Source: an uncultured delta proteobacterium (lineage in GTDB: Bacteria; Myxococcota_A; Polyangia; Fen-1088). From it: a stretch of DNA of 64,000 nucleotides. Numbering within the stretch: position 1 is the stretch's first letter; each line of letters starts with the position of its first letter. The position numbers were made by a program, and so were the translations under genes. Shown one piece after another: positions 10,646 to 43,644 of this stretch. Where the stretch lies: contig CAWAKD010000006.1 in assembly GCA_963782545.1 (NCBI GenBank), positions 71,309-135,308 of the forward strand. The letters run 5' to 3'. The notes below the pieces were generated by a model. The model did no database searches. It was not told the DNA's origin and saw only the letters and a program-made list of their open reading frames with translations.

Positions 10646-11392
10646 ATGAACCGTCGCACTGCTCTTCTTGGCGTGGTTGCACTTGCGGGCTGTGGCAGCC
10701 AACCGGGTTCCTTGACCCCGGCCGAATACTGCAACCAGTACGCGCAGGACGTGTGCGCGGCAGTTGCGGCCGCGTGTCTCGTGCCGGAGGCCAGTTGTTC
10801 GACCGGCCAACTCGTCGCGTGCAACGCCGACGCGCAGAGCAAAGCGGGCCTGGACTTCATCCCGTCGAATGCCCAGACCTGTCTGAACAAGGTGAAAGCC
10901 ACCTACGGAAAGTTGAACCAGGGCTTGGCGATCCCCGCGGCGGATTTCCAGGCCATGAACGAAGCTTGCAGCCAGGTCTACCGGGGCACGAAAGTGGCCA
11001 ATGCATCATGTGCCGGTGACGCCGAGTGCATCAGCGGCTTGATCTGCGACAAGGGCCATTGCGGGACGGCGGCTGTGGTCGCGCCGGGGGCTGGTTGCGC
11101 CAATATCGGAGAGACGTGCCCGCAGGGCTTCTACTGTAGCGACGCCAGCAGCATTTGGGTGTGCGCGAGCAAGGTCTCTCTGGGCATGGCGTGCGACGAT
11201 GCGCTCCCTTGCCTGGAGAACCTGCGCTGCGCCGCGGGTGTCTGCACCGCGCGACTTGGCATCAGCGAGGACTGCACCCTCGACCAAGATTGCAGCAGCG
11301 GATTCTGCGAACCCTACGCGCTCAAGTGCGCGCAAGAATTACGTTTCGCCAGCGGTAACGTCGATTGCACGGCCATGGGTGGCAGCGGCTGA
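10646..11392 (+). CDS. Cysteine-rich secreted lipoprotein
   Basis: Lipobox LAGCGS. About 30 Cys residues in repeated C-x-x-G-x-C spacing. Confidence 0.6.
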   Translation: MNRRTALLGVVALAGCGSQPGSLTPAEYCNQYAQDVCAAVAAACLVPEASCSTGQLVACNADAQSKAGLDFIPSNAQTCLNKVKATYGKLNQGLAIPAADFQAMNEACSQVYRGTKVANASCAGDAECISGLICDKGHCGTAAVVAPGAGCANIGETCPQGFYCSDASSIWVCASKVSLGMACDDALPCLENLRCAAGVCTARLGISEDCTLDQDCSSGFCEPYALKCAQELRFASGNVDCTAMGGSG

Positions 11393-13297: not shown

Positions 13298-14212
13298 ATG
13301 ATCCGTCGAAGCCTACACTTCGGCGAAGGCCTCGTTCACCGCATGGGAGCGCGGGCCCAGCTTTTCGCGGCGGCCGTTCTCTTCGGATTGCTTGCCGCGC
13401 TCACGCGCAGCACGGCGGCGGGGGGCTTTTCCGTGGGGCAGATCTCCACGATTCGATTTGCCACGGGAGCAGTGCTTACGCTCGGCTTGTTCGTCGCCCG
13501 GCCCGGCACCTTCGCGCCGGTGAGACACGGGCTTCTCGTCGCGCGCGGTGCGCTCGGCGGGCTGGCGGCGTTCTTGTATTTCGTCGCGCTTTCGCGCATC
13601 CCGGCCGGGGAAGCGACACTGCTCAACAACACATTCCCGATCCTGGCCACGGCCCTCGCTTTCATCTCACTGCACGAGCGACCCACCATTCACCTCGCCG
13701 TGGGCCTGGCAATTGCCAGTGCCGGCGTGCTCTTGGTACTGGGTCGAGGAACCGCCTCGTTCTCCCTGGGATGGGGCGAGATGGCAGGTATCGCCTCGGC
13801 TATCCTGGGCGCGGGCGCGGTCACGACAATCCGGGCCTTGCGTGCCACCGACAACGCCCCCACGATCTTCTTCGCATTTTGCCTGGGCGGTCTGATTGTC
13901 TCCATTCCCTTCGCACTCGGGCCATGGCCGACGGGCACGGCGCTTTGGGGTGTTGCCTTGGGTGGCGTCGGGCTGACCTCGTTTGGCGCACAAATGCTCA
14001 TGACCCATGCCTACGGGGGGCTCACCGTCCCCGAGGCGGCCATATGGCAACAACTCACACCGGTCGCGAGCTACCTCTGGGCGCTGGCCATCCTCGACGA
14101 GCGACTCGCCCCGCTTGCCGTGCTGGGCGTTTTCTTGGGCCTTTCGGGCGTCGTCTACGGATCGGTCTGGGGGCGCGAGGGCACGACAACGGCGCCACCC
14201 TTCGATGCGTGA
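13298..14212 (+). CDS. DMT superfamily (EamA-like) transporter
   Basis: About 10 transmembrane segments in a duplicated EamA arrangement. Confidence 0.75.
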   Translation: MIRRSLHFGEGLVHRMGARAQLFAAAVLFGLLAALTRSTAAGGFSVGQISTIRFATGAVLTLGLFVARPGTFAPVRHGLLVARGALGGLAAFLYFVALSRIPAGEATLLNNTFPILATALAFISLHERPTIHLAVGLAIASAGVLLVLGRGTASFSLGWGEMAGIASAILGAGAVTTIRALRATDNAPTIFFAFCLGGLIVSIPFALGPWPTGTALWGVALGGVGLTSFGAQMLMTHAYGGLTVPEAAIWQQLTPVASYLWALAILDERLAPLAVLGVFLGLSGVVYGSVWGREGTTTAPPFDA

Positions 14213-14305
14213 ATCTTTTCGCTAGTGGCTGTTTGCGCTGGCGATTGGCCGCCGTGCCCACGCGCGGTGGCGTGCGCGAAGCACTGTCCAATTGATCAGC
14301 TCCGC

Positions 14306-15655
14306 CTAATGCAGCCAGGCTGTCCCACGATTGTCGTGGCGAAGGCTAGGCCACGATGAATTGGCCAGCCCAGGACTGCAGGTTTGGATGGCGAGCAGGT
14401 CCTTCTGCCCCTCCTCACCTGCTCGCACGAGATAGAGTACGCCGTCGGAGTCCAGCACGGCGTGTCCTGAGGCGCAGTATCCGCCCAGGTCCAGATGCCA
14501 CAGCTCCGTCAGATCGGGAGTGTAGGCGACGAGCCGGCTCGTCGGTTTGGCTGCGTACTTGCAAAGGATGGTGTAGATGGTGCCGTCGCGGCCGGCGGCA
14601 AACGGCTGTCCATCCACCGGCAGTGGCCCGACTCTTCTCTGCCCGTTAGCATCGTAGAGTGAGAGGAGCGAGATCGGTGTGGGGGCAGACGTGCCCTCTG
14701 TCCGGAGGGCCGAGGTGACGAGCAGATCGCCCTCGGTGATGATCCCCGAAGGGATAGCCCCCGACGTTCCCTCGACAAAGGAACCGCGCCGCCTGCCGCA
14801 GGAATCGAGCGCGAGCGTGTCGGCAAACGAGATGCCCGCTTTCCAGCCAAGACAGAAGCCGGCTAGCCCTCCTCGAAAGTCGTGTCCTTCGCTGACCTTG
14901 AACGTTCCAAGATGAGCGCCGGTCTTTGTCTCGTAGACCGCAAAGCCCATGGTGTGCGAGTACACGAAGACCGCGCTCCCCGCCCCGCCGAGAACTTGGG
15001 CCGGGTCGGGATACGAGGCTGGCACGCTATGGCTCCAGATCTCTCCCCCGTCTTTGGCCCGAATGGCGCGGAGCTTGTCGTCGAATCCCACGCCATAGAG
15101 GACGCCATCAGTATCCAACGCGAGCGGACCGGGGGATGGCGTCATCCCGACTCGCCATGCTCCGTGTGATTTGTGCCAGCCCAGCCTCTTGTCGGGATCC
15201 AAGGAAAAGACACCTGCTGCCGCCGCGTAATAGACATTTCCGCCGTCGCCGCCCGTCAGTGCAGAGACCTCAGAGCCCCAGGGAATGCCAGCGTACTCCG
15301 TTCGCTGACCCTGCTTGTCGAAGAACACGACCCGCGGTCCAGCCCGAACGGCCAACCGCTGTCCAGCCATGACTGGGCCATCGCAGTCGACCCGAAAGCA
15401 AGCAGTGACTCCGCCCGTCTTCCCAACCCAAAGAAGCTTCGGGCAGTCCACGGCCAGGGACGCCTTCTTGGCGGGCTGAAGCGATGGGGCAGACGGCCAA
15501 TCCGGGATGCATCTGGTCAAGCGGGAGCCTGCAAGGCCGCCTGTCCCGCATCCCCTCCCGCACGAGGAGAGACATGCGGGGCAAAGCAGCGTAGCGAGCA
15601 ACCCGAACGCGAGTCGTGTCACCTTCGTTGAGCTTGCGTGGGCAATCGAGGACAT
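14306..15655 (-). CDS. Secreted PQQ-like beta-propeller repeat protein (BamB/YVTN-like)
   Basis: Signal peptide. Repeated ...G.VY.....G.L.A.D..TG...W blades (DTDGVLYGVGFDDKLRAIRAKDGGEIWS ; DSDGVLYLVRAGEEGQKDLLAI). Confidence 0.7.
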   Translation of the reverse strand: MSSIAHASSTKVTRLAFGLLATLLCPACLSSCGRGCGTGGLAGSRLTRCIPDWPSAPSLQPAKKASLAVDCPKLLWVGKTGGVTACFRVDCDGPVMAGQRLAVRAGPRVVFFDKQGQRTEYAGIPWGSEVSALTGGDGGNVYYAAAAGVFSLDPDKRLGWHKSHGAWRVGMTPSPGPLALDTDGVLYGVGFDDKLRAIRAKDGGEIWSHSVPASYPDPAQVLGGAGSAVFVYSHTMGFAVYETKTGAHLGTFKVSEGHDFRGGLAGFCLGWKAGISFADTLALDSCGRRRGSFVEGTSGAIPSGIITEGDLLVTSALRTEGTSAPTPISLLSLYDANGQRRVGPLPVDGQPFAAGRDGTIYTILCKYAAKPTSRLVAYTPDLTELWHLDLGGYCASGHAVLDSDGVLYLVRAGEEGQKDLLAIQTCSPGLANSSWPSLRHDNRGTAWLH

Positions 15656-15723
15656 ACCAATGAGCGAACAGACTCAATAGGCCCGCTCGCTACTCCATAG
15701 GCCAAGCGAAGCAGCAGGTCATC

Positions 15724-18700
15724 CTAAGGGGAATATTGCGTCAGAGCCCAAGCCATGTGGTTTGCAATGAAGTCTTCGTCGTCGAAATCGGTCTGGTCGA
15801 GGTTGTAGATGCCGTCTGCATTCGGATAGAAGGTGGTCCAGGGGAGGTTTTCCTTGCAAAGAAGCCCCTCGCCTGGGAGTTCCCCATCGGCTTCATTGAT
15901 CTCCGCCGCCCCCCTGATCTTGCCGTCGAAGGTGACCAAGGAGGTTCCACCTATCGGATTATTGTAGACGTTGCCAAAGTAGGTGGGCGTGACAAAAGCG
16001 AGTGCATGGGTGGGACGAGAGCCGGTGCCGTTCCACGGCGCGTTGCCACGCGTGAACGTAATGAACTGAGCCGTCCCCACAACCCCGTTGCCCTTGAACG
16101 CCAGATAGAAGCGCCCTTCAGTGCCTTCCGGAAGGAAGGCCAGACTCACACTCCCTGGAACACTTACCCTCACCTGGGGGACAGGCGGGGCTGGCGGCGG
16201 AGGCGAAGGTGGAGTCGGAGTAGCAAGAATTCTGTCGAAACCGGGTAAGTCCGCCCAGATACCAGGATCGAGCTTCGACCAAGTCGAGGTGTAGATCTGT
16301 TGTCCAGCTATCGGGTTAGGGCCGGTACGCTCCAGCCGCGCGATTTCCATGATTGGAAGAGCTCCGGAGGTAGGATCCGACAAAAGGGAGGGGATGACCG
16401 CGAAGATGCTGGTCTGGCCAGGGGGATCGGTGGACAGGCGTCCCTTCGTCACGCCGATGCCGATATCCACTCCAGTCACCGCGATCTTGTCGCCGGTGGA
16501 CCAGTACTCATCGGCCCCAAAGACGACAACGCTACCGGATGTCAGATCGTACTCCCATCGCTTGAGGTAGTAATTGCCGTCGGGCGATAGGCCTGGCGCG
16601 AATATCAGCACTCTGTTACTCAGGTCGTCCTTTATCGCTATTGGTGATGCACTGACCGAGGCGCCGAATAGGGGCCAAAGACCTTGGAAGGCATTCGGGT
16701 CGATTTCCGGCAACCCGCCCGCCGTCGTCCACTTGGTCTTCAACAGGTAGAGCTGCCCGGTGCCGTCCGCATAAACGACGACGTCGCCCGCCGCTGTCGG
16801 ACTGCGAGCCCCGTCGGGAGCAGGCACCATGCCAATTTGAGCCTCTTTGGTGTTGAAGGTCGCACACTTCTCGTGCCCCGGGTTCGCGCATTGACTCAGG
16901 TCAACGACTCCCACATACATTTGGCCATTGGGCACTAGTGGGTTCTGAGGGCCTGGAGGATTGGTTACGCAGGCTTCCTGGTCTCGCATGGGGCCAACCA
17001 CCACCAGCCCCTGATCCATGACAGCAACCGCCCCATGCAGGGCCCGCACGAACCACTTGTTGGCGCGAACGTTGTAGGGGGCAAGATTGCAGTCCTTGGC
17101 GCCTTCGTAGTTCAGAACCGCTTGGACCGTTGTGCCCTGTGGAGCGATGTCCCCGTCCATGTTCCAGTCAACCGAGCCGTTCGGCTTGACCTCGCGGTCG
17201 AAGTAGGAGGAGGACTGAAGATAGTCGGCCAGTTGGCTCCCGACGTTGGCCACCCCTATGCCGGCGTATTCGTCCAATCGCGTCGGGTTGAGAACGAGAT
17301 TCTTGTAGGTGCCTGGGGAGTAAGGCCCGAGCACGGCCGAGGGATAGCCGCCTAGCTCCATGGCACCTTGATATCCATAGTTCATCTGGCTCAGATACTG
17401 GGGTTTGCAGTTCGCCTTGCCTGACTCCTCTTGTCCACTGTCTGGGATTCCGAAGAAGTGACCGGTTTCGTGGGCAAAGGTCAGGGCATTGCCACCTTCG
17501 GTAATTCCACTGCACGCGCCCGTATTCTGGCCAGCACCCCCGTTAAACAAGCGAATGTGATAGAAAGTGTTAGCTCGTGAGGGGGAGAAGCCATCACAGT
17601 AGCCCCCTGGGACCGTCAGCAGTTCCGCTCCACCCCAGCTTCCAGAAACCGTAGGATCCGTGGATGACGTGTTGCCCGTGTCGATGTGAACGTTGATGTG
17701 GAGCTTGGTACCCTTCCCCATCACCCGATGAATTGCGTCGGCCGCCTGCGGGGTCATCTGGTACCCCTGCTCCCAGTCTGCCTCCACGAAGAGGTCTCGC
17801 TGCAGCGGATTCGCGCCATAGTAGTGGAATTTGAGCAGGTTCTTTCTCGTGGTCTCGTGTGCTGGGTCGTCAGCCCCACCTACCACCTCCAAAAGGTCGG
17901 GGAGTCCGTCGCCGTCCACGTCATCATCGTCACAGTCAGGTTTGCCGTCTCCGTCCGTGTCCCTGCCGGGGTCGTTTGGATCGCAGGTTCCCACCAGCAC
18001 TTCCATGGCGTCGCCCATCCCATCGCCATCGCGGTCTGGTCCGGTGTGGCCGCCTTCAGCGTCCCACACCAGAGTTGTGCCGGCGTTGGTCGGGTCGGGC
18101 CCCGCAACACCGTCGACTAACTTGCCGGAGCGAACCGCTGCGCGGGCAACGAGGATAGAACAGTTGTTCGCGGGACAATCTTCGAACAGATGGAGCCAGG
18201 ACATCAGGGCCACGCCGTTGTCGTCGTCGTAGGCTATGGGCACGTCGCCGGCGCCCAGCACCATCAGGATGGTGTCATCGGTGCCACCCTGCTCCTCGAG
18301 GGTCGATATGTGGGTCGTGGTTGGCAGTCCCGTTGCAACGGCTGTTATGCTGGATACGCCACTGGGTGCAGGGGAGTATGAGCCGGATTGCAGAGCGACG
18401 GAGGTGTCCCCTCCCACGGTGGGGTGAAGCTCCGTCAGGCCATCGAAAATACCACTCGTGCCTGGTACACCCCTTACCACTAGGACAATGGGCCTATCCG
18501 CCGCCTGCGCGGGGAAGATCACTTGCGTTGGGGTATCGGCAACGTATCTCGCCTCTTGCAATAGGTCTTCATTCGGATACCCGAATGCGTCGACAATCAG
18601 GTCGGGATCGGGATCGGTCGTACCGGCCTTCCAGAACGTGTATGTCGCGGCGGTGTTCGCCGGCACCATGAGGAAATACTGGCTCACGGTGTCGACCCCA

Positions 18701-18798
18701 GAAAAGGGCACTATTCCGGCCGGCTGGGCGTGAGACGTTCCGGCTAAGAAGAGCAGCGAAATGGCAGAGGCGATCGAGATTATCTTGAGTGTGCGCAT
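15724..18798 (-). CDS. Secreted zinc metalloprotease (HExxHxxGxxD, snapalysin-type motif) with thrombospondin type-3-like Ca-binding repeats
   Basis: Signal peptide MRTLKIISIASAISLLFLAGTSHA. The motif HETGHFFGIPD is present. An acidic DTDGDGKPDCDDDDVDGDGLPD repeat block follows. 1024 aa. Confidence 0.8.
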   Translation of the reverse strand: MRTLKIISIASAISLLFLAGTSHAQPAGIVPFSGVDTVSQYFLMVPANTAATYTFWKAGTTDPDPDLIVDAFGYPNEDLLQEARYVADTPTQVIFPAQAADRPIVLVVRGVPGTSGIFDGLTELHPTVGGDTSVALQSGSYSPAPSGVSSITAVATGLPTTTHISTLEEQGGTDDTILMVLGAGDVPIAYDDDNGVALMSWLHLFEDCPANNCSILVARAAVRSGKLVDGVAGPDPTNAGTTLVWDAEGGHTGPDRDGDGMGDAMEVLVGTCDPNDPGRDTDGDGKPDCDDDDVDGDGLPDLLEVVGGADDPAHETTRKNLLKFHYYGANPLQRDLFVEADWEQGYQMTPQAADAIHRVMGKGTKLHINVHIDTGNTSSTDPTVSGSWGGAELLTVPGGYCDGFSPSRANTFYHIRLFNGGAGQNTGACSGITEGGNALTFAHETGHFFGIPDSGQEESGKANCKPQYLSQMNYGYQGAMELGGYPSAVLGPYSPGTYKNLVLNPTRLDEYAGIGVANVGSQLADYLQSSSYFDREVKPNGSVDWNMDGDIAPQGTTVQAVLNYEGAKDCNLAPYNVRANKWFVRALHGAVAVMDQGLVVVGPMRDQEACVTNPPGPQNPLVPNGQMYVGVVDLSQCANPGHEKCATFNTKEAQIGMVPAPDGARSPTAAGDVVVYADGTGQLYLLKTKWTTAGGLPEIDPNAFQGLWPLFGASVSASPIAIKDDLSNRVLIFAPGLSPDGNYYLKRWEYDLTSGSVVVFGADEYWSTGDKIAVTGVDIGIGVTKGRLSTDPPGQTSIFAVIPSLLSDPTSGALPIMEIARLERTGPNPIAGQQIYTSTWSKLDPGIWADLPGFDRILATPTPPSPPPPAPPVPQVRVSVPGSVSLAFLPEGTEGRFYLAFKGNGVVGTAQFITFTRGNAPWNGTGSRPTHALAFVTPTYFGNVYNNPIGGTSLVTFDGKIRGAAEINEADGELPGEGLLCKENLPWTTFYPNADGIYNLDQTDFDDEDFIANHMAWALTQYSP

Positions 18799-18812
18799 GA
18801 CATTCCTCCTGC

Positions 18813-20822
18813 CTAGCGAGCGACGAAAACGATGCTGGGATCGGCGATGGGAGTGAAGACTCCGTTGACCTCGGGGTTGGTCCTCGGCATCTGGCTGGCG
18901 CTACTGCCGCCGGGCGGTGGTTGTGGAGGCGGCTGGGAACTCGATGGTTGTGCCGGGGACATGGTCACGACGGACTCCTGGGCGATGGGCGTGACGACGG
19001 CGCTCTGGTCTTCAGCGCACCCGACGCTAAGCTGAACCCTGGTAGGCCCGGCCTGGGAGTCCCCCTGTTCGGTGTGCAGACGCAGCTTCGTGGCAAGCAG
19101 CTTCTGGCCCGCGACGAGCCCGCCTTCACACGACTCGAAGACGTAGAAGCCGGCGTATGCGCGTTCCAGCGGGGTGCTGGGATGTTCCTGCGAGGATCCC
19201 CCCCGGTACGTACAAGCCGTGAAGCAGGTCGGGCAGGCGCCGGCTTGCTGGATCGAGAGAATCGTGGTGCCGCTGCCTGACAGACCGTCGATGACGTTCA
19301 TGAGCTTGGGCACGGTGAACAGCGCGGGCGCCGAGAACTCTTGCTCGCCGTCCGTACTCGCGACGGGGCTGTAGGTCTTGAGTGCCACCAGGTTGACACC
19401 GGCGCAGGTCGCGCAGCTTCCGCCCACGCAACTGCCCTTCTGACAGAGCTGGCCTTCGGGGCATCCGGTCGAGTAGTAGCAGTCGGTTCCGTCCGGCACC
19501 GGATCGTTCGGGCACAAACCGGTTTGCGCGTTGCAGATCCCAGCCGCGTGGCATTGATCGGAGGCGGTGCAGGTGATGGGGTTCTGGCCGACGCAGATCC
19601 CGTCTTGGCACCGGTCGTCGTCGGTGCAGGCACTGGCGTCATCGCAGGGCGTGTCGTCGGAGAGGACGGTGTAGTTACCGCAAGCACCGGTCGACGGGTT
19701 GCATGTGCCGGGGCCGTGACAACCGTCGGGCGCAGGACACGCAACCGCAGGCCCTGGCACGCAGACGCCGCCTTGGCACCGGTTGTTCTGAGTGCAAGGG
19801 TTTGCGTAGGTACACGGAGTCGTGTCGGGCAGGCCGGTGCACGAGGCGGATGGCGTGCTGCCTGGACAGGCCAGACACTGATAGACTTGGTCCGCGATGG
19901 TCTTGGGTGCCACGCCATATGGGAATCTATTGACCCCGCACGTGCCATTGGGATCGTCGGTCGGACCGGTCCCATTCTCGAGGTAGCAGTCAAGGAACAC
20001 CGTGCAGTGTGTTCGGTCCCACTGCGTTTCTCGCGTGCACCACTGGCCGCACATGGTGTTGCGCCAGTCCTGCAAACAGGCGCCCCCGCCCCCACCGCCG
20101 TCACTGGTTGAGGTGCTGGTCGCGGTGGTCGTCACGGTGACAGTGGTCGTCGCCGTCGGGGTCGTCGTCTGCGTCAGGGTTTGCGTCTGCGTCTGGGTGA
20201 TCGTATCGGTGTGGGCGCCGGTCGCGGTCTTCGTATAGGTCCAGGTTATTCTTCCGCTCCAACCGACCCCAGTACCCGTGGCGAGCATGGTCTTGCTCAA
20301 GGCCCCCGCATAGTACGCCGCTACGGTCTTCGTGGTCGTGGCCGTCGCAAAGCTCGAGAACTGCATCGTTAAGGTCGTCGTGCCCGAGCCCGTATACGTC
20401 GCACCGCTGTCTGCGTATGTGCCGGTCGCGGTGCCGCTTCCGATGAAGGTCGTAACCGCCGTATCAGCACGGGTCAGGGTGGCGGTCCAGACATATGGCT
20501 TGGCTCCAACGTAGTCGTTCCTGAGGGTCACGGTGCCCACGCCCGTGCCCGTAACATTGAGGTAGTTCGCAGTCGCCGTCTTGGTGGTGACGTTGCCCGT
20601 TGCCGTCTGTGTATGCGTGGAGGTCGACGATTCGGTGTAGGTCGATGATTGCGTGTAGGTCGAGGTTTGCGTCTGGGTGCCGGTGACGGTGATGACCGAG
20701 TCCTTGATACTTGCGCGCAGCCCCCGATGCGAGCCGCCTCCTTCGTCCGGCGGAGGCGTCGAGCCGCACCCCACTGCCAAGGTCTGAGCTACAACCACGA
20801 ACCACAGAAGGTCTGTTTTCAT
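18813..20822 (-). CDS. Lipoprotein with a Thr-rich low-complexity region and Myxococcus-type cysteine-rich repeats
   Basis: Lipobox LAVGCGS. An approximately 230-aa T/Q/S-rich segment. Then tandem C-x5-6-C...C-x-x-G-x-C repeats (PCTYANPCTQNNRCQGGVCV...). Confidence 0.75.
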   Translation of the reverse strand: MKTDLLWFVVVAQTLAVGCGSTPPPDEGGGSHRGLRASIKDSVITVTGTQTQTSTYTQSSTYTESSTSTHTQTATGNVTTKTATANYLNVTGTGVGTVTLRNDYVGAKPYVWTATLTRADTAVTTFIGSGTATGTYADSGATYTGSGTTTLTMQFSSFATATTTKTVAAYYAGALSKTMLATGTGVGWSGRITWTYTKTATGAHTDTITQTQTQTLTQTTTPTATTTVTVTTTATSTSTSDGGGGGGACLQDWRNTMCGQWCTRETQWDRTHCTVFLDCYLENGTGPTDDPNGTCGVNRFPYGVAPKTIADQVYQCLACPGSTPSASCTGLPDTTPCTYANPCTQNNRCQGGVCVPGPAVACPAPDGCHGPGTCNPSTGACGNYTVLSDDTPCDDASACTDDDRCQDGICVGQNPITCTASDQCHAAGICNAQTGLCPNDPVPDGTDCYYSTGCPEGQLCQKGSCVGGSCATCAGVNLVALKTYSPVASTDGEQEFSAPALFTVPKLMNVIDGLSGSGTTILSIQQAGACPTCFTACTYRGGSSQEHPSTPLERAYAGFYVFESCEGGLVAGQKLLATKLRLHTEQGDSQAGPTRVQLSVGCAEDQSAVVTPIAQESVVTMSPAQPSSSQPPPQPPPGGSSASQMPRTNPEVNGVFTPIADPSIVFVAR

Positions 20823-21137
20823 CGTCCTTACTCCAGCTAAGTCTTTGGTCCAGGAGAACTACTCGGCCGTGCGACGCAAGGCGAGAGGCCATCTATCATG
20901 AGGGTTTCCGTGATGTCAATCTGAAGAGTATTCGCCGTTGAGCATCAGGTATCTTTACGAACGGGGCAAAACGTGCCTCGATGATCGTGCGTACCGCGGC
21001 CACAAGATGCGCCAAGTACTTGGAAGCTCGGGCGAAGAGGTCGGTGCTGCCACCCTCGCTGTCGATGTCAATCGCCAAAATGGCCTGCCCGGGTGTCAGA
21101 TCGCGCCTCCTCTTGGCGGGAACGCCCTCGCGCGGAG

Positions 21138-21830
21138 TCAGGCGCGTTGGCCGGCGGGGCCTTGGGGTGCATAGGGCGCGTCGAAGCGCTTGTTGAAGGC
21201 ACCGTGCTTCTTGAGCTGCGCGTTCCAGTAGATGTTGGCCAGACCGGAGAAGACGAGCAGACGCACGACCGCGCGGCCGACGATTCCGAAGGTTCGCGTG
21301 CCGGCCATGCTGGCAATCAAGCTGGGAGAGAATGCTTTCTTTTCCCCAAGCTCCTTGCCGGCGGCAACGAAGCGGGCTTGAATCTTGGCGACTTGCCTGG
21401 GTGGCATCATGCGAATACCTTCGACGCCGCCTCGGCGAAGCGTGCCCAGGTGCTGGAAGCCGAGACGGGTGGAGAGCCGCGCCAGGTACCGCCCCAGCAC
21501 CTCGGTGTGAATGGCCTCGGGAAAACCCGACTGGATGATGAAGGCAACGCGCTTGCCGCGCATCCGCGCCGGGTCGACGGCGACGAGCGCCTCGAAGAAG
21601 CCCTTCACGATCCCGGGCATCGCGTCCGTGTAGAGCGGGAAAGTGAACACCACCTCGTCCGCATCGAGAAACGCCGAAAGGACTTCGGGCCGGGTCGGAT
21701 CCGGGGCAAGGTCGACGGTGGGGGAAGCCGCCACGCCGGCCTGCTCCAGCCCTTGCCCGATCCACGCCAGGATCTTGCGCGAGTTGCCGTCCTTGCCTCT
21801 TGGCGAACCGTTAAGCAGCAAGCGCTTCAT
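21138..21830 (-). CDS. Flavodoxin-fold NAD(P)H-dependent FMN reductase-like protein
   Basis: MKRLLLNGSPRGKDGNS...FTFPLY is an NADPH-dependent FMN reductase / multimeric flavodoxin WrbA-like pattern. The N-terminal 33 aa of the ORF were discarded. Confidence 0.65.
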   Translation of the reverse strand: MKRLLLNGSPRGKDGNSRKILAWIGQGLEQAGVAASPTVDLAPDPTRPEVLSAFLDADEVVFTFPLYTDAMPGIVKGFFEALVAVDPARMRGKRVAFIIQSGFPEAIHTEVLGRYLARLSTRLGFQHLGTLRRGGVEGIRMMPPRQVAKIQARFVAAGKELGEKKAFSPSLIASMAGTRTFGIVGRAVVRLLVFSGLANIYWNAQLKKHGAFNKRFDAPYAPQGPAGQRA

Positions 21831-22356
21831 GGGCTGCCTCCTCGACGGTGGTGGTGCTGGTCGCGAACAGGCGCAGGCGCGTGCGGGTGTTGCGGGAGAA
21901 GCGCTCGAAGAAGGCACGCGCGATGGCCACATCCTCGGCCGTGTCGTCGGCGGCCGGTTCGACGATGACGCCGAGGTCGGCGTTGTGCGCGTAGCGGTGT
22001 CGGTGGTGGCACTCGCCGTCCACCAGCTCGATGTAGGGATGGGCGAGCGGGATGAACCAATCCTGCGCCTTCTTGGTCAGGGCGCTGATGGCTCCGAGCA
22101 CCAGCGGACTGGCCCATACGATGAGGTCGGCCTTCACCATCTCGGGATAGATGGCGCGCATGTCGTCCTTCATGGCGCACAGGCCGGGTGTCTTCCACCA
22201 GCAGGTCCAGCACCCGACGCAGTAGCGAATGTTGGCGTCGCGCAGGTCGAAGCGCAGGGCGGTGTGGCCGTTCGTGGTGAGCGCCTGGGCGAATCGCGTA
22301 AGGTAGTCGTCGAACGCCGAGGGCTTGGGATTTCCGTTCAGAACCAGACAGTGCAT
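21811..22356 (-). CDS. Flavodoxin-family / iron-sulfur flavoprotein-like reductase
   Basis: MHCLVLNGNPKPS...CVGCWTCW...LIVWASPL is the NADPH-dependent FMN reductase fold with a Cys cluster. Confidence 0.65.
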   Translation of the reverse strand: MHCLVLNGNPKPSAFDDYLTRFAQALTTNGHTALRFDLRDANIRYCVGCWTCWWKTPGLCAMKDDMRAIYPEMVKADLIVWASPLVLGAISALTKKAQDWFIPLAHPYIELVDGECHHRHRYAHNADLGVIVEPAADDTAEDVAIARAFFERFSRNTRTRLRLFATSTTTVEEAAHEALAA

Positions 22357-22377
22357 GGGGCCTCCTTCTTTTGCACA

Positions 22378-22429
22378 ATGTTTACGCTGTCAACATCAGG
22401 GAACTCCAAGATGTTGACGGTGTCAACAT
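22378..22429. promoter_or_regulatory. Two tandem 19-bp palindromic operators (putative TetR binding sites) in the divergent promoter region
   Basis: ATGTTTAC-GCT-GTCAACAT (22378..22396) and ATGTTGAC-GGT-GTCAACAT (22411..22429). Each has 8-bp inverted arms and a 3-bp spacer. Centres are 33 bp apart. They lie between the flavoprotein operon start (22356) and tetR (22449). Confidence 0.55.
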
Positions 22430-22448
22430 TAAAGTCGAGAATGTCGCC

Positions 22449-23081
22449 ATGGCCAAGAAGAAGCGGTATCACCACCCCGACCTGAAGCAGGCGCTTCTCG
22501 ACGGGGCGCTTAAGCTCATCCAGGAAGAAGGCTTGCGCGGCTTCTCGCTGCGCAAGCTGGCCATGCTGGCTGGAGTCAGCCACGCGGCGCCCTATCGCCA
22601 CTTTGCCAGCAAGGAGCAACTGCTGGTGAGCTTGATGCTGGAGGGGCACAAACGGCTGCGGTCCGCGTTGCTGGCCGCGGCTTCGAGCTGCAAGGGGACC
22701 GCGGTCGACAAGTACCTCGCGCTGGGCCGCGCCTACCTCGAATTCGCCAGAGAGAATCCGGAACACCTTCGGGTGATGTTCTCACGCGAGGCCATGCAGG
22801 CGGCCATGGGCTCGCAAGAGCCCGAAAAGTTCCACCAGCAGGACTACGATTCCTTCGGCGTCGTCGAAGAGATGGTTCGCGCGTGTCAGCGGGAAGGTGC
22901 GTTGCCCAAAAAGGGAAACGTCGGCGCCCTCGGAATCCTTGCCTGGGCCGAGGTGCACGGCCTGGCCCTGCTGTGCAACGAGGGGGTGGTCGCGACGATG
23001 GCGGAAATGCGTGGAACCAGCGAGAGCCAGGTCATGGGGATGATCTTCGCTTTCATGGAGGCGCGGCTCAAGCGTCGCTAG
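22449..23081 (+). CDS. TetR/AcrR family transcriptional regulator
   Basis: HTH motif LRGFSLRKLAMLAGVSHAAPYRHFASKEQLL. Start moved to MAKKKRYHH. Confidence 0.85.
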   Translation: MAKKKRYHHPDLKQALLDGALKLIQEEGLRGFSLRKLAMLAGVSHAAPYRHFASKEQLLVSLMLEGHKRLRSALLAAASSCKGTAVDKYLALGRAYLEFARENPEHLRVMFSREAMQAAMGSQEPEKFHQQDYDSFGVVEEMVRACQREGALPKKGNVGALGILAWAEVHGLALLCNEGVVATMAEMRGTSESQVMGMIFAFMEARLKRR

Positions 23082-39120: not shown

Positions 39121-39193
39121 TAGTAATATTGTGGAGCTGAACAGGATCGAACTGTCGGCCTCCTGAATGCCATTCAGGCGCTCTCCCAGCTGA
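39121..39193 (-). tRNA. tRNA-Ala (anticodon GGC)
   Basis: Reverse complement: GGGGCTGTAGCTCAGCTGGGAGAGCGCCTGAATGGCATTCAGGAGGCCGACAGTTCGATCCTGTTCAGCTCCA. G3:U70 identity pair. Anticodon loop AT-GGC-AT. T-loop TTCGATC. 73 nt, CCA not encoded. Confidence 0.9.
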
Positions 39194-39370
39194 GCTACAG
39201 CCCCATCGCCCCTTGCGAGGCACGGAGTAACTACCAGCCACGTGGCCAGACGTCAATACCGGAGTCGCGGCGTCACGGCACGGCTTGACAGGGCGGGGCA
39301 GGGTGGCAGATTGTCTCCTCCCTTTTCGCGGCGATCTTGCGCCGCGAGGGACGCAACATCAGGAGAATCC

Positions 39371-40471: not shown

Positions 40472-40495
40472 CCACAGCGCCCCTCACCCTGTCCC

Positions 40496-41904
40496 TCATA
40501 GGTGCTAACCACTTTTTTGCTAGTGATCTCGCGAAGGTGTACGGGGAGGTATGGGGACGAAACTTCTGGAGTGCGAATGGCCGATGTTGGTCCGGGAGCT
40601 TCCTGCCGGGTGGAAGGAGAGCGCGTTCTTAACGGGCGCAATTGTCATGGAGGACGGGCCACTGGCCGACCCGGAGAAGCTGCTACGGTTGCTGTTGGGT
40701 AGGGCAGCATCTGACGGATCCCTACGCTCCGTGGTCGCGCACGCTCGGGCAACCGGGTTGTGCGACGTGAGCAACGTAGCCCTGCACAAGCGGGAGAAGC
40801 GATGTGCGGACTGGCTGGAATGGATCGCGGACGACATGCTGGCGGAAACCATGGCTGGGCTGCCGTCAAGTCCCTTGCGCATGCGTCTGGTAGACGCGAC
40901 TTGCGCGAGCCGGCCTGGCAGCACGATGGCCGATTTTCGCCTGCACGTGACTGTGGAGTTGCCTACCCGGCGATTCACCCGAGCGGAGTTGACCGACAAC
41001 CATGGCGGGGAGTCGTTCGAGCGAATGGCGGTTGAGCCAGGTGATCTCTTGGTGGGTGACCGCATCTATGGGACGGCGAATTCGATCGAGCACGTGACGG
41101 CGAGAGGTGGCTACGCCCTGGTGCGCATCAATGCTTCGTCGCTGCCAATGTGGAGTACCTCCGACGGGGCGCGGGTCGACCCACTGGTCGTGGCCAGAAG
41201 GCTCGCCCCTGGCGAGATGACGGAGATCCCCGTCGAGATCCGGCCGAAGTCTGGTCAGGCGATCGAGGGAAGATTTTGTATCTATGCCTTGCCCACCGAG
41301 CAGGCAGCCAAGGCCCAGAAGCGGACGCGCCGGACCAAGTTGAAGCGCGGCAAGCGACCGGGCAAGTGTTCCATCGAGAGCGCCAAGTACATCATGTTGT
41401 TTACGACCGTGCCCTGCAAGATGATGACGACCGCACAAGTGGTCGCGACCTATCGGCTGCGTTGGCAAGTCGAGCTTGCGTTCAAGACGCTCAAGACTGT
41501 GCTCAAGTTCGACGAGTTGCCCAATCGCCTGCCGGACACGGGCCGTACCTGGCTGCTCGCTAAGCTGATCTGCGCGCTTCTGCTGCAACGGTTGGCCGGC
41601 TGCCACGAGGCTATTCCCCCCTCGGACGTCGCAGCCGCTGCCTAGCCCATCATCCCGGCCAAGCCGGCTTTCTCCATTTCGCGCCATTGCGTTTCTGTCC
41701 TGTGCTCTGGCCGATGCCATTCTCGGTCGACTCACGCTGACGGCACGAGTTGCAGCCCTTGACCGCACATCTGAGTTTCGCGACGGCCGCCAGCAGTACC
41801 AAATCGACAAATTCGTCGTCCGACCTCGACACCGTCTTGCTCAACGCCTCGGCCTAGTCACGAAAGCTACCTCATGCAGGGCTCCGAGTGGTTAGCACCT
41901 ATGA
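40496..41904 (+). mobile_element. IS element copy A (1409 bp, DDE_Tnp_1 / IS4-like)
   Basis: 18-bp terminal IRs TCATAGGTGCTAACCACT (40496..40513 and 41887..41904). Flanked by a 9-bp direct repeat CCCTGTCCC (40487..40495 / 41905..41913). Confidence 0.8.
40551..41645 (+). CDS. IS4-like DDE transposase (364 aa)
   Basis: Y-(2)-R-(3)-E-(6)-K signature in YRLRWQVELAFKTLK. Identical to the copy at 42324..43418. Confidence 0.85.
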   Translation: MGTKLLECEWPMLVRELPAGWKESAFLTGAIVMEDGPLADPEKLLRLLLGRAASDGSLRSVVAHARATGLCDVSNVALHKREKRCADWLEWIADDMLAETMAGLPSSPLRMRLVDATCASRPGSTMADFRLHVTVELPTRRFTRAELTDNHGGESFERMAVEPGDLLVGDRIYGTANSIEHVTARGGYALVRINASSLPMWSTSDGARVDPLVVARRLAPGEMTEIPVEIRPKSGQAIEGRFCIYALPTEQAAKAQKRTRRTKLKRGKRPGKCSIESAKYIMLFTTVPCKMMTTAQVVATYRLRWQVELAFKTLKTVLKFDELPNRLPDTGRTWLLAKLICALLLQRLAGCHEAIPPSDVAAAA

Positions 41905-42064
41905 CCCTGTCCCTTACCCTGTCCCTCTCCCCGGCTGTCGCCGGGGCGAGGGGACCTGGCTGCTGGATCTCTGCGCAGGCAAGTGATCTCTCGACTCGTC
42001 CGAACCGCCCCCTCGCCCCGCGTAGCGCAGCGAAGCGGGGAGAGGGTTGGGGTCAGGGTTGGGG
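41905..42064. repeat. 160-bp remnant of an imperfect palindromic intergenic element between the two IS copies
   Basis: Arms ccctgtcccttaccctgtccctctcccc ... ggggagagggttggggtcagggttgggg are inverse-complementary with a few mismatches. The overlapping 67-aa ORFs on both strands are palindrome artefacts. Confidence 0.5.
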
Positions 42065-43473
42065 TCATAGGTGCTAACCACTCGGAGCCCTGCATGAGGT
42101 AGCTTTCGTGACTAGGCCGAGGCGTTGAGCAAGACGGTGTCGAGGTCGGACGACGAATTTGTCGATCTGGTACTGCTGGCGGCCGTCGCGAAACTCAGAT
42201 GTGCGGTCAAGGGCTGCAACTCGTGCCGTCAGCGTGAGTCGACCGAGAATGGCATCGGCCAGAGCACAGGACAGAAACGCAATGGCGCGAAATGGAGAAA
42301 GCCGGCTTGGCCGGGATGATGGGCTAGGCAGCGGCTGCGACGTCCGAGGGGGGAATAGCCTCGTGGCAGCCGGCCAACCGTTGCAGCAGAAGCGCGCAGA
42401 TCAGCTTAGCGAGCAGCCAGGTACGGCCCGTGTCCGGCAGGCGATTGGGCAACTCGTCGAACTTGAGCACAGTCTTGAGCGTCTTGAACGCAAGCTCGAC
42501 TTGCCAACGCAGCCGATAGGTCGCGACCACTTGTGCGGTCGTCATCATCTTGCAGGGCACGGTCGTAAACAACATGATGTACTTGGCGCTCTCGATGGAA
42601 CACTTGCCCGGTCGCTTGCCGCGCTTCAACTTGGTCCGGCGCGTCCGCTTCTGGGCCTTGGCTGCCTGCTCGGTGGGCAAGGCATAGATACAAAATCTTC
42701 CCTCGATCGCCTGACCAGACTTCGGCCGGATCTCGACGGGGATCTCCGTCATCTCGCCAGGGGCGAGCCTTCTGGCCACGACCAGTGGGTCGACCCGCGC
42801 CCCGTCGGAGGTACTCCACATTGGCAGCGACGAAGCATTGATGCGCACCAGGGCGTAGCCACCTCTCGCCGTCACGTGCTCGATCGAATTCGCCGTCCCA
42901 TAGATGCGGTCACCCACCAAGAGATCACCTGGCTCAACCGCCATTCGCTCGAACGACTCCCCGCCATGGTTGTCGGTCAACTCCGCTCGGGTGAATCGCC
43001 GGGTAGGCAACTCCACAGTCACGTGCAGGCGAAAATCGGCCATCGTGCTGCCAGGCCGGCTCGCGCAAGTCGCGTCTACCAGACGCATGCGCAAGGGACT
43101 TGACGGCAGCCCAGCCATGGTTTCCGCCAGCATGTCGTCCGCGATCCATTCCAGCCAGTCCGCACATCGCTTCTCCCGCTTGTGCAGGGCTACGTTGCTC
43201 ACGTCGCACAACCCGGTTGCCCGAGCGTGCGCGACCACGGAGCGTAGGGATCCGTCAGATGCTGCCCTACCCAACAGCAACCGTAGCAGCTTCTCCGGGT
43301 CGGCCAGTGGCCCGTCCTCCATGACAATTGCGCCCGTTAAGAACGCGCTCTCCTTCCACCCGGCAGGAAGCTCCCGGACCAACATCGGCCATTCGCACTC
43401 CAGAAGTTTCGTCCCCATACCTCCCCGTACACCTTCGCGAGATCACTAGCAAAAAAGTGGTTAGCACCTATGA
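42065..43473 (-). mobile_element. IS element copy B (1409 bp, inverted relative to copy A)
   Basis: The same 18-bp IRs (42065..42082 and 43456..43473). Own 9-bp direct repeat GGGTTGGGG (42056..42064 / 43474..43482). Confidence 0.8.
42324..43418 (-). CDS. IS4-like DDE transposase (364 aa), second copy
   Basis: Translation identical to 40551..41645. Confidence 0.85.
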   Translation of the reverse strand: MGTKLLECEWPMLVRELPAGWKESAFLTGAIVMEDGPLADPEKLLRLLLGRAASDGSLRSVVAHARATGLCDVSNVALHKREKRCADWLEWIADDMLAETMAGLPSSPLRMRLVDATCASRPGSTMADFRLHVTVELPTRRFTRAELTDNHGGESFERMAVEPGDLLVGDRIYGTANSIEHVTARGGYALVRINASSLPMWSTSDGARVDPLVVARRLAPGEMTEIPVEIRPKSGQAIEGRFCIYALPTEQAAKAQKRTRRTKLKRGKRPGKCSIESAKYIMLFTTVPCKMMTTAQVVATYRLRWQVELAFKTLKTVLKFDELPNRLPDTGRTWLLAKLICALLLQRLAGCHEAIPPSDVAAAA

Positions 43474-43644
43474 GGGTTGGGGTGAGGGGCGATCCTGTGG
43501 ACCTCTCCAAGCCGCCCTCTTACCGCTGGAAGCCGCCGGTGTAGGTCGCACACTTGGCTTTCTGGGTAAGGACGAGCCCCGATGGGGAGAGGCTTGAAGT
43601 GGCCAGGCGTCGCTCTCAGCGCGCTCTGTGGTTAAACTGCGCTG

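Follow-up and report, generated by a model that had tools for sequence, protein, structure and literature searches.

Three consecutive minus-strand genes, A, B and C, are described here from a 64,000-nucleotide stretch of contig CAWAKD010000006.1 (positions 71,309 to 135,308; assembly GCA_963782545.1), which derives from an uncultured delta proteobacterium of the Polyangia and is called the window below. Gene B codes for a large secreted protein that, judged by its motifs, is a genuine metzincin; it is accompanied by two genes for predicted lipoproteins, A upstream and C downstream. The trio is read as one co-transcribed module that would build an envelope-tethered protease assembly, and this reading is given a probability of about one half. 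It is based on the structure of the genes, on signals for export and lipidation, on catalytic motifs that are intact, on the domain architecture and on a synteny that is conserved. The chemistry of the metzincin clan and the existence of lipoprotein partners of secreted proteases are already known. What is new is an uncatalogued, widespread multidomain metzincin family together with a propeller lipoprotein that accompanies it, as a conserved partner, in its myxobacterial branch.

The three open reading frames (ORFs) were confirmed where a previous reading of the bare letters (the sequence-only reading) had put them, with spacings of 14 nt (18799-18812) and 68 nt (15656-15723). Codon-position GC content supports the coding status of all three. 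No terminator-like site was found in either gap, and B is preceded by a strong ribosome-binding site (AGGAGG) 6 nt before its ATG. All three products carry export signals. In A and C these are combined with lipidation signals, as the signal peptide of both ends in a lipobox of the type [LVI][ASTVI][GAS]C (LAVG-C19 in A, LSS-C32 in C).

Metzincins are defined by the zinc signature HExxHxxG/NxxH/D with its catalytic Glu, and by a Met-turn (PMC12237041). In B the former is found as HETGHFFGIPD and the latter, judged from the sequence alone, as SQMNY. A word-indexed protein search with B returned six relatives only. A profile search against 1.84 billion representative proteins gave 11,947 matches at E ≤ 1e-3, including 489 at E ≤ 1e-30, and the top 150 were mostly full length. 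The family alignment was built from 85 full-length members, and the family thus holds at least 85 such representatives. Throughout this alignment the catalytic Glu444 and His447 are invariant. Position 443 is His in 80 sequences and Gln in five, and position 450 is Gly (48) or Asn (16), together 64/85. The Met-turn is preserved to a similar extent, with Ser470 in 84, Met472 in 79 and Tyr474 in 82 of the 85. The glutamate base and the Met-turn, whose loss on alignment would have counted against a protease, are therefore both kept.

The third zinc ligand is the unusual position of B. It was noted beforehand that an Asp stands here, and the protein was for this reason compared to the snapalysins (M7), with which it indeed shares the HExxHxxGxxD pattern. 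That comparison does not hold. Position 453 is His in 82 of the 85 family members; just three, among them the window protein, have Asp. P0002, the nearest relative, has His as well. Because of this distribution, Asp453 is most simply taken as a recent private substitution within a His-type family and not as a mark of snapalysin ancestry. Snapalysins are, moreover, small single-domain enzymes; B has 1024 residues and gives no Peptidase_M7 match at E ≤ 1.

The same Asp could also be taken as a sign of lost function. B would then be a catalytically dead adhesin or scaffold, and the trio a non-proteolytic surface adhesion complex. In line with this, Asp453 deviates from the family His, B scores below its relatives on the Reprolysin models, and propellers, Cys repeats and a Thr-rich region are all modules of a binding type. 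However, E444, H443, H447, G450, M472 and Y474 are all kept, the Asp recurs at the same position in two further family members, and Asp is functional as third ligand in snapalysins, thuringilysins and IgAse (PMC12237041). As the catalytic residues are intact, a pseudo-enzyme is very unlikely. Since Asp is an accepted third ligand, B is probably an active enzyme despite Asp453.

Within the clan, B cannot be assigned to any of the existing families. Against Pfam and NCBIfam it gives sub-threshold matches only, all around the zinc site: 14.4 bits for Reprolysin_5 (cut-off 27), 13.7 bits for Reprolysin_4 (cut-off 22) and 16.5 bits for the M6 domain model (cut-off 110.8). Reprolysin_4/5 and M66 are weakly matched by 22-25 of 30 catalytic domains of the family, again below threshold, and the relatives of B reach an E-value of 2e-6 at best on Reprolysin-type models. 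In profile searches of the PDB only adamalysins, serralysins and matrix metalloproteinases (MMPs) were matched, on their zinc sites and with E-values from 3e-4 to 0.1. The adamalysins and serralysins are the best of these matches for the catalytic domain (from 3e-4 to 3e-2). Because the PDB matches and the family-domain matches both stay weak, B is placed, as far as profiles can tell, inside the metzincin clan and outside every named family.

A comparison with the members of the clan (MEROPS clan MA(M): astacins, serralysins, adamalysins, matrixins and snapalysins) leads to the same picture. B shares with them the zinc signature and a Met-turn 16 residues on, which has the Ser-x-Met-x-Tyr form of the astacins and serralysins. 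In contrast to them, it reaches no curated family cut-off, and its catalytic domain is embedded in an architecture of 900-1100 residues with PPC, thrombospondin type-3 (TSP3) and propeller parts. The residue following the third ligand differs among the classic families: adamalysins have Asp, serralysins Pro, astacins Glu and matrixins Ser. In the B family it is Gly in 59 of the 85 members, and in the window protein it is Ser. From the adamalysin/reprolysin family (M12B) B is further set apart by staying under the Pfam Reprolysin gathering cut-offs. Serralysins (M10B) have an RTX nonapeptide domain and leave the cell by type I secretion, whereas B has a Sec signal, a C-terminal propeller and calcium loops of the TSP3 type.

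The architecture of B was derived from an AlphaFold model built on the 85-sequence alignment, with a mean predicted local distance difference test (pLDDT) of 85.7 and a predicted template modelling score (pTM) of 0.87; a run on six sequences (pLDDT 39.7) was discarded. The signal peptide is followed by a beta-sandwich region, for which PPC (PF04151) was matched weakly in relatives of B. Next comes the acidic block. The earlier description of B, with its signal peptide, its HETGHFFGIPD and an acidic, TSP3-like DxDxDG block, was borne out in full. Five Asp residues of this block (D257, D259, D293, D297 and D301) are invariant in the 85 sequences. The repeated DxDxDGxxDxxE loops that characterize TSP3 were recognized in B from the motif; the TSP3_bac model matched relatives and not the window protein. 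The catalytic domain and a C-terminal beta-propeller complete the chain.

When this propeller was compared to the PDB with Foldseek, five- and six-bladed propellers were retrieved (E about 1e-5, probability 1.0), namely those of GH43 enzymes, sialidases and the fungal fucose lectin AFL. The MMPs likewise carry a propeller C-terminal to a metzincin catalytic domain, and in them this hemopexin propeller mediates the binding of substrates and partners. The two propellers are nevertheless different. That of the MMPs is four-bladed, whereas that of B has about 435 residues and some 24 strands and finds its best matches among five- and six-bladed folds. B also differs from the matrixins (M10A) in having no cysteine-switch prodomain and no Hemopexin Pfam match, and Peptidase_M10 was matched weakly and in relatives only. 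Proteins of 900-1100 residues that combine PPC, TSP3, catalytic and propeller parts occur in Myxococcota, Actinomycetota, Acidobacteriota and Bacteroidota. Examples from outside the myxobacteria are found in Microbacterium (L022), an Acidobacteriaceae member (L013), and metagenome-assembled genomes of a Bacteroidota member (L016) and an actinomycete (L008), and none of these four reaches a curated cut-off.

That B does not act on its own is suggested by the gene next to it. Ten other loci were available in which the B-like gene is full length and the sequence downstream can be read, the metagenome loci being taken from among the matches listed in the six-sequence scan. At nine of the ten, a C-like gene directly follows B (the JGI contigs of P0002, with two copies, and P0004, as well as L001, L002, L003, L005, L014, with two copies, L085 and L086). 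The B proteins of these loci are 27-50% identical to that of the window, and the gaps or overlaps between B and C often measure 1-4 nt. An A-like gene lies directly upstream of B in five of nine loci (L001, L002, L014 and the contigs of P0002 and P0004). In a clustering of ORFs around 160 related loci, C was the sole conserved neighbour; the largest cluster, likely a single-linkage artefact, was set aside. No C-like neighbour was seen at distant loci whose similarity is confined to the catalytic region (about residues 255-576), nor at those with the full architecture in other phyla.

Such an arrangement could in principle be fortuitous, with three genes for unrelated secreted proteins that happen to lie side by side. 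It is true that no curated family or system joins A, B and C, and that C-like genes can occur alone. The order B-then-C is found, however, in nine of ten independent loci, even where identity is as low as 27%, and the stop codon of the first gene often overlaps the start codon of the second; A is present in five. Identities of 27-50% also rule out near-clonal contigs. Given this conserved synteny, chance adjacency is hardly credible. Co-conservation of the three genes, which had been proposed as a check on the sequence-only reading, was thus borne out, and the trio is probably one functional unit, because it recurs in distant myxobacteria-like relatives. The earlier proposal needs correction as regards A, which is not a universal member. 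As C follows B in nine of ten loci and A precedes it in five of nine, the core of the module consists of B and C, with A as a frequent accessory of some lineages.

C was previously described as a PQQ/BamB-like propeller of eight blades with a signal peptide. The family profile of C confirms the fold: it matches Cake9, a designed propeller of the PQQ type, in eight stretches (E 4e-61), and also 3hxj (2e-25) and BamB (4e-11). PQQ-type blades are in this way recognized in C through its family, and the eight matched stretches are consistent with eight blades. On its own, C scores below the Pfam PQQ_2 cut-off (20.8 versus 27.6 bits); PF13360 is carried by its relatives. The signal peptide turned out to be more than that, as it ends in a lipobox. 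Its Cys32 is found in at least 90% of 11 relatives, always in an L-[SGA]-C context, and because of this conserved cysteine C is predicted to be a lipoprotein. In the deposited annotation C is shortened to 340 aa (P0210), so that both the signal peptide and the lipobox are missing. Homologues span 93-96% of the 449-aa ORF and support either this ORF or a GTG start 11 codons past its ATG.

As a lipoprotein with a PQQ-type propeller, C resembles the BamB/PQQ-like lipoproteins (Pfam PQQ_2). It is not likely to be a BamB orthologue, however. No BamB model of NCBIfam, the equivalog included, matches C at E ≤ 0.1, and the gene lies outside a bam context, with a protease gene and an EamA transporter gene as neighbours. 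It also has features of its own: an N-terminal CIxDWP segment is common to the 11 aligned relatives, and a nearly invariant C-terminal motif forms the most conserved block of the family. Nothing in the sequence suggests that PQQ is bound or used by C, and the quinoprotein dehydrogenase models stay far under their cut-offs (TIGR03075, 12 versus 480 bits; TIGR04528, 13.8 versus 650 bits).

A had been described as a lipoprotein with a Thr/Gln-rich stalk and tandem cysteine-rich repeats of the Myxococcus type. The lipobox stands, since Cys19 of LAVGC is invariant in nine relatives, and A is predicted to be a lipoprotein on this basis. The Thr-rich region was likewise recovered. In P0173, P0174, P0170 and P0178 the corresponding (T-x)n tract is far longer, with strictly alternating Thr over hundreds of residues. 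These tracts have no Pfam model, and neither they nor A as a whole have a structural relative in the PDB; they may fold into a beta structure with a face of Thr, or else be a glycosylated stalk. The assignment of the repeats, in contrast, had to be changed. Residues 244-470 contain 30 Cys, and no NCBIfam model matches A at E ≤ 0.1, including that for the Myxococcus cysteine-rich repeat (TIGR02232), so the repeats are not of this type. They resemble DUF7107/Dicty_CTDC instead: DUF7107 matches A with E 3.4e-4 and 21.3 bits, below its cut-off of 24.6, and PF23416 or PF00526 is carried by homologues. The number of repeats varies from 0 to 3 among the relatives. Two other parts are conserved, a Cys-containing domain ahead of the repeats, which is kept in eight of nine aligned A-family proteins and has no Pfam match, and the C-terminal region (residues 471-669), with identities of 70% (L001), 40% (L002) and 39% (L014).

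The products are proposed to work together as follows, where physical contacts, location, the direction in which regulation runs and the substrate are all inferred from the features above. B would be exported via Sec and act, stabilised by calcium, as a zinc endopeptidase belonging to the metzincin clan. The catalytic domain would be held between the PPC-like beta-sandwich with the TSP3 loops on one side and the roughly six-bladed C-terminal propeller on the other, and this propeller probably recognises a substrate or partner. C, as a lipid-anchored propeller of the PQQ/BamB type, would be the obligate partner of B. It most likely docks on the propeller of B and thereby holds or regulates the protease at the outer membrane. 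The conserved gene order and the frequent translational coupling suggest that the assembly is stoichiometric. A would be a second lipoprotein and a lineage-specific accessory, which either presents or binds the substrate or keeps B latent.

The docking of the propellers is suggested by L166 and L167. Here the nearest homologue of C (52% identity) is preceded by an ORF (4260-5630 in L166, and likewise in L167) in which an unrelated helical N-terminus of about 100 residues is joined to a B-like C-terminal propeller only (residues 626-1021, 47.5% identity). This ORF is a variant of the module that lacks the protease, or else a remnant of it. In both cases the propeller of B is the part that was kept beside a C homologue.

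Several observations weigh against a fixed three-gene module with docked propellers. The loci on which the synteny is based are few and mostly lie on short metagenome contigs. No obvious ribosome-binding site precedes C in the 68-nt gap. L089 has a full-length relative of B without a C gene downstream, and C homologues stand alone in L164 and L165. The contact between the propellers is drawn from a single remnant locus that was seen in two samples. A is the most variable member: the genes upstream of B are unrelated in L005 and L085, and in L003 (203-697) and L089 (238-762) A is replaced by a small predicted lipoprotein of 164 or 174 aa that overlaps B by 4 nt. These small proteins are unlike A, and their mutual similarity is not significant (E 0.14).

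This variability of A raises another possibility, namely that the trio is a latency or immunity module. A and/or C could then be cognate inhibitors that hold B in an inactive state, within the periplasm or at the producer's surface, until it is released. A lipoprotein gene directly precedes B in seven of nine loci with visible upstream sequence (five of the A type and the two small, unrelated ones), and the swap of A for a non-homologous lipoprotein is the pattern that would be expected of fast-evolving inhibitors, which fits reasonably well. The conserved tail of A past its Pro-rich linker could fill the active-site cleft. Periplasmic inhibitors of serralysins offer one precedent for such a role. 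A closer one is found in Tannerella forsythia, where genes for the potempin lipoproteins lie directly upstream of those for the KLIKK proteases and are co-expressed with them (PMC7296668), just as lipoprotein gene A directly precedes protease gene B. Unlike the potempins, which are small, A is a multidomain protein of 669 aa; there is no sequence relationship, and the trio has an additional propeller lipoprotein in C. Both A and C (449 aa) are in fact much larger than typical protease inhibitors. The fold of C is a generic scaffold that is not known as a metzincin inhibitor, and no similarity to any inhibitor family was found in Pfam and NCBIfam, or for A in the PDB. L005 and L085, finally, manage without an upstream lipoprotein. 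On balance, inhibition as the purpose of the trio seems rather unlikely, and the envelope-tethered assembly is retained as the preferred reading.

A more far-reaching version of that assembly is offered tentatively and with clearly less confidence than the module itself. It would comprise a new, phylum-spanning metzincin family which in the myxobacterial branch has gained an obligate lipoprotein propeller partner, with docked propellers, surface-tethered and regulated proteolysis, and A as a stalk-mounted substrate receptor or latency factor.

Features of the trio, with positions in the window and residues of the encoded protein
Feature	Positions	Strand	Residues	Remarks
Gene A	18813..20822	-		ORF; predicted lipoprotein of 669 aa; putative accessory member of the module
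Gene B	15724..18798	-		ORF; secreted multidomain protein of 1024 aa, predicted metzincin
Gene C	14306..15655	-		ORF; predicted PQQ/BamB-like beta-propeller lipoprotein of 449 aa; putative core partner of B
Promoter-like element	20890..20919	-		TTGACA (20914-20919), 18-nt spacer, TAGATG (20890-20895); read from sequence; 67 nt ahead of the gene A start codon (ATG)
B, signal peptide		-	1-24	Sec type
B, N-terminal beta-sandwich region	18049..18720	-	27-250	PPC-like; all-beta, high confidence in the model
B, Asp-rich calcium-binding loops	17884..18042	-	253-305	TSP3 type; DxDxDG block
B, metzincin catalytic domain	17059..17883	-	306-580	HExxH helix at 438-448 in the model
B, zinc motif HETGHFFGIPD	17440..17472	-	443-453	85-sequence alignment
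B, Met-turn SQMNY	17377..17391	-	470-474	85-sequence alignment
B, C-terminal beta-propeller	15727..17031	-	590-1024	About 24 strands; AlphaFold model and Foldseek
A, alternating-Thr (T-x)n region	20094..20717	-	36-243	34% Thr, 47 TxT motifs
A, conserved Cys-containing domain	19869..20078	-	249-318	About 70 aa; CLQxWRxTxCGQxC...DCYL...APKTIADQVYxCLxC
A, cysteine repeats	19413..19847	-	326-470	About 2.5 repeats, DUF7107/Dicty_CTDC type
A, conserved C-terminal domain, Pro-rich linker and tail	18816..19412	-	471-669	Tail TNPxVxGxxxPIxxP
C, signal peptide and lipobox	15560..15655	-	1-32	LSSC (Cys32)
C, C-terminal motif	14309..14398	-	420-449	AIQTxSPGLAxSSWPSLRHDNRGTxWL

The promoter that had been proposed for the trio is present as a sequence and gains nothing from the scans. 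A consensus scan passes over this candidate, because the last base of its -10 hexamer is a G, and promoter-like sites in the region show no enrichment over shuffled sequences. The 315-nt gap before gene A also holds a second copy of GATTGACATC near position 21070.

In composition the trio stands out from its surroundings. The GC content at third codon positions (GC3) is 0.78, 0.69 and 0.72 in the three genes, as opposed to 0.83-0.89 in the neighbouring genes, and between positions 14000 and 22000 the regional GC content falls to 0.60-0.64 across the trio from 0.65-0.68 around it. This dip is compatible with horizontal acquisition. No mobility genes or flanking repeats were found at the borders of the trio, and a repeat search over 13800-21400 turned up only the periodicity of the coding Thr-repeat.

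The flanking genes are unrelated to the trio. Immediately upstream and on the same strand, two FMN-reductase/flavodoxin-like genes lie in tandem (21138-21830 and 21811-22356), followed by a divergent gene of the TetR family (22371-23081) and a desaturase gene. On the downstream side lie a gene for an EamA transporter, which is convergent, and one for a phosphofructokinase (PFK). A few kb from the trio, a 248-aa ORF on the plus strand (10646-11392) gives a weak match to the cysteine-rich Dickkopf_N (E 0.002) and may code for another Cys-rich secreted protein. Elsewhere in the window, two insertion-sequence (IS) copies of 1456 nt each form an inverted pair (40478-41933 and 42036-43491), with 99% complementarity and 102 nt between them; each encodes a DDE_Tnp_1 transposase of 372 aa. 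The pair is located about 1.3 kb from a tRNA gene (39132-39204), the sole Rfam match in the window.

That the combination is not a described system, as was first supposed, agrees with all searches made. The module is not found above threshold in Pfam or NCBIfam, has no match in PADLOC, and did not appear in literature searches on metzincins, propellers, myxobacteria and lipoproteins or on the minor metzincin families that have been named. Few extracellular proteases have been studied as well as the metzincins, but the branch of B has no curated model, solved structure or known substrate. A definition of the family would better annotate thousands of proteins that are now labelled hypothetical. 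A role of the trio in predation or adhesion, as was also suggested from the sequence, is pure conjecture. Nevertheless, the trio provides a concrete target for the surface biology of myxobacteria, be it matrix remodelling, predation or kin interactions. If the module is real, its conserved and often translationally coupled propeller lipoprotein would represent a novel mode of anchoring or regulation for a bacterial metalloprotease. Should the more far-reaching version with docked propellers hold as well, the trio would stand for a protease complex of a new kind on the bacterial cell surface.

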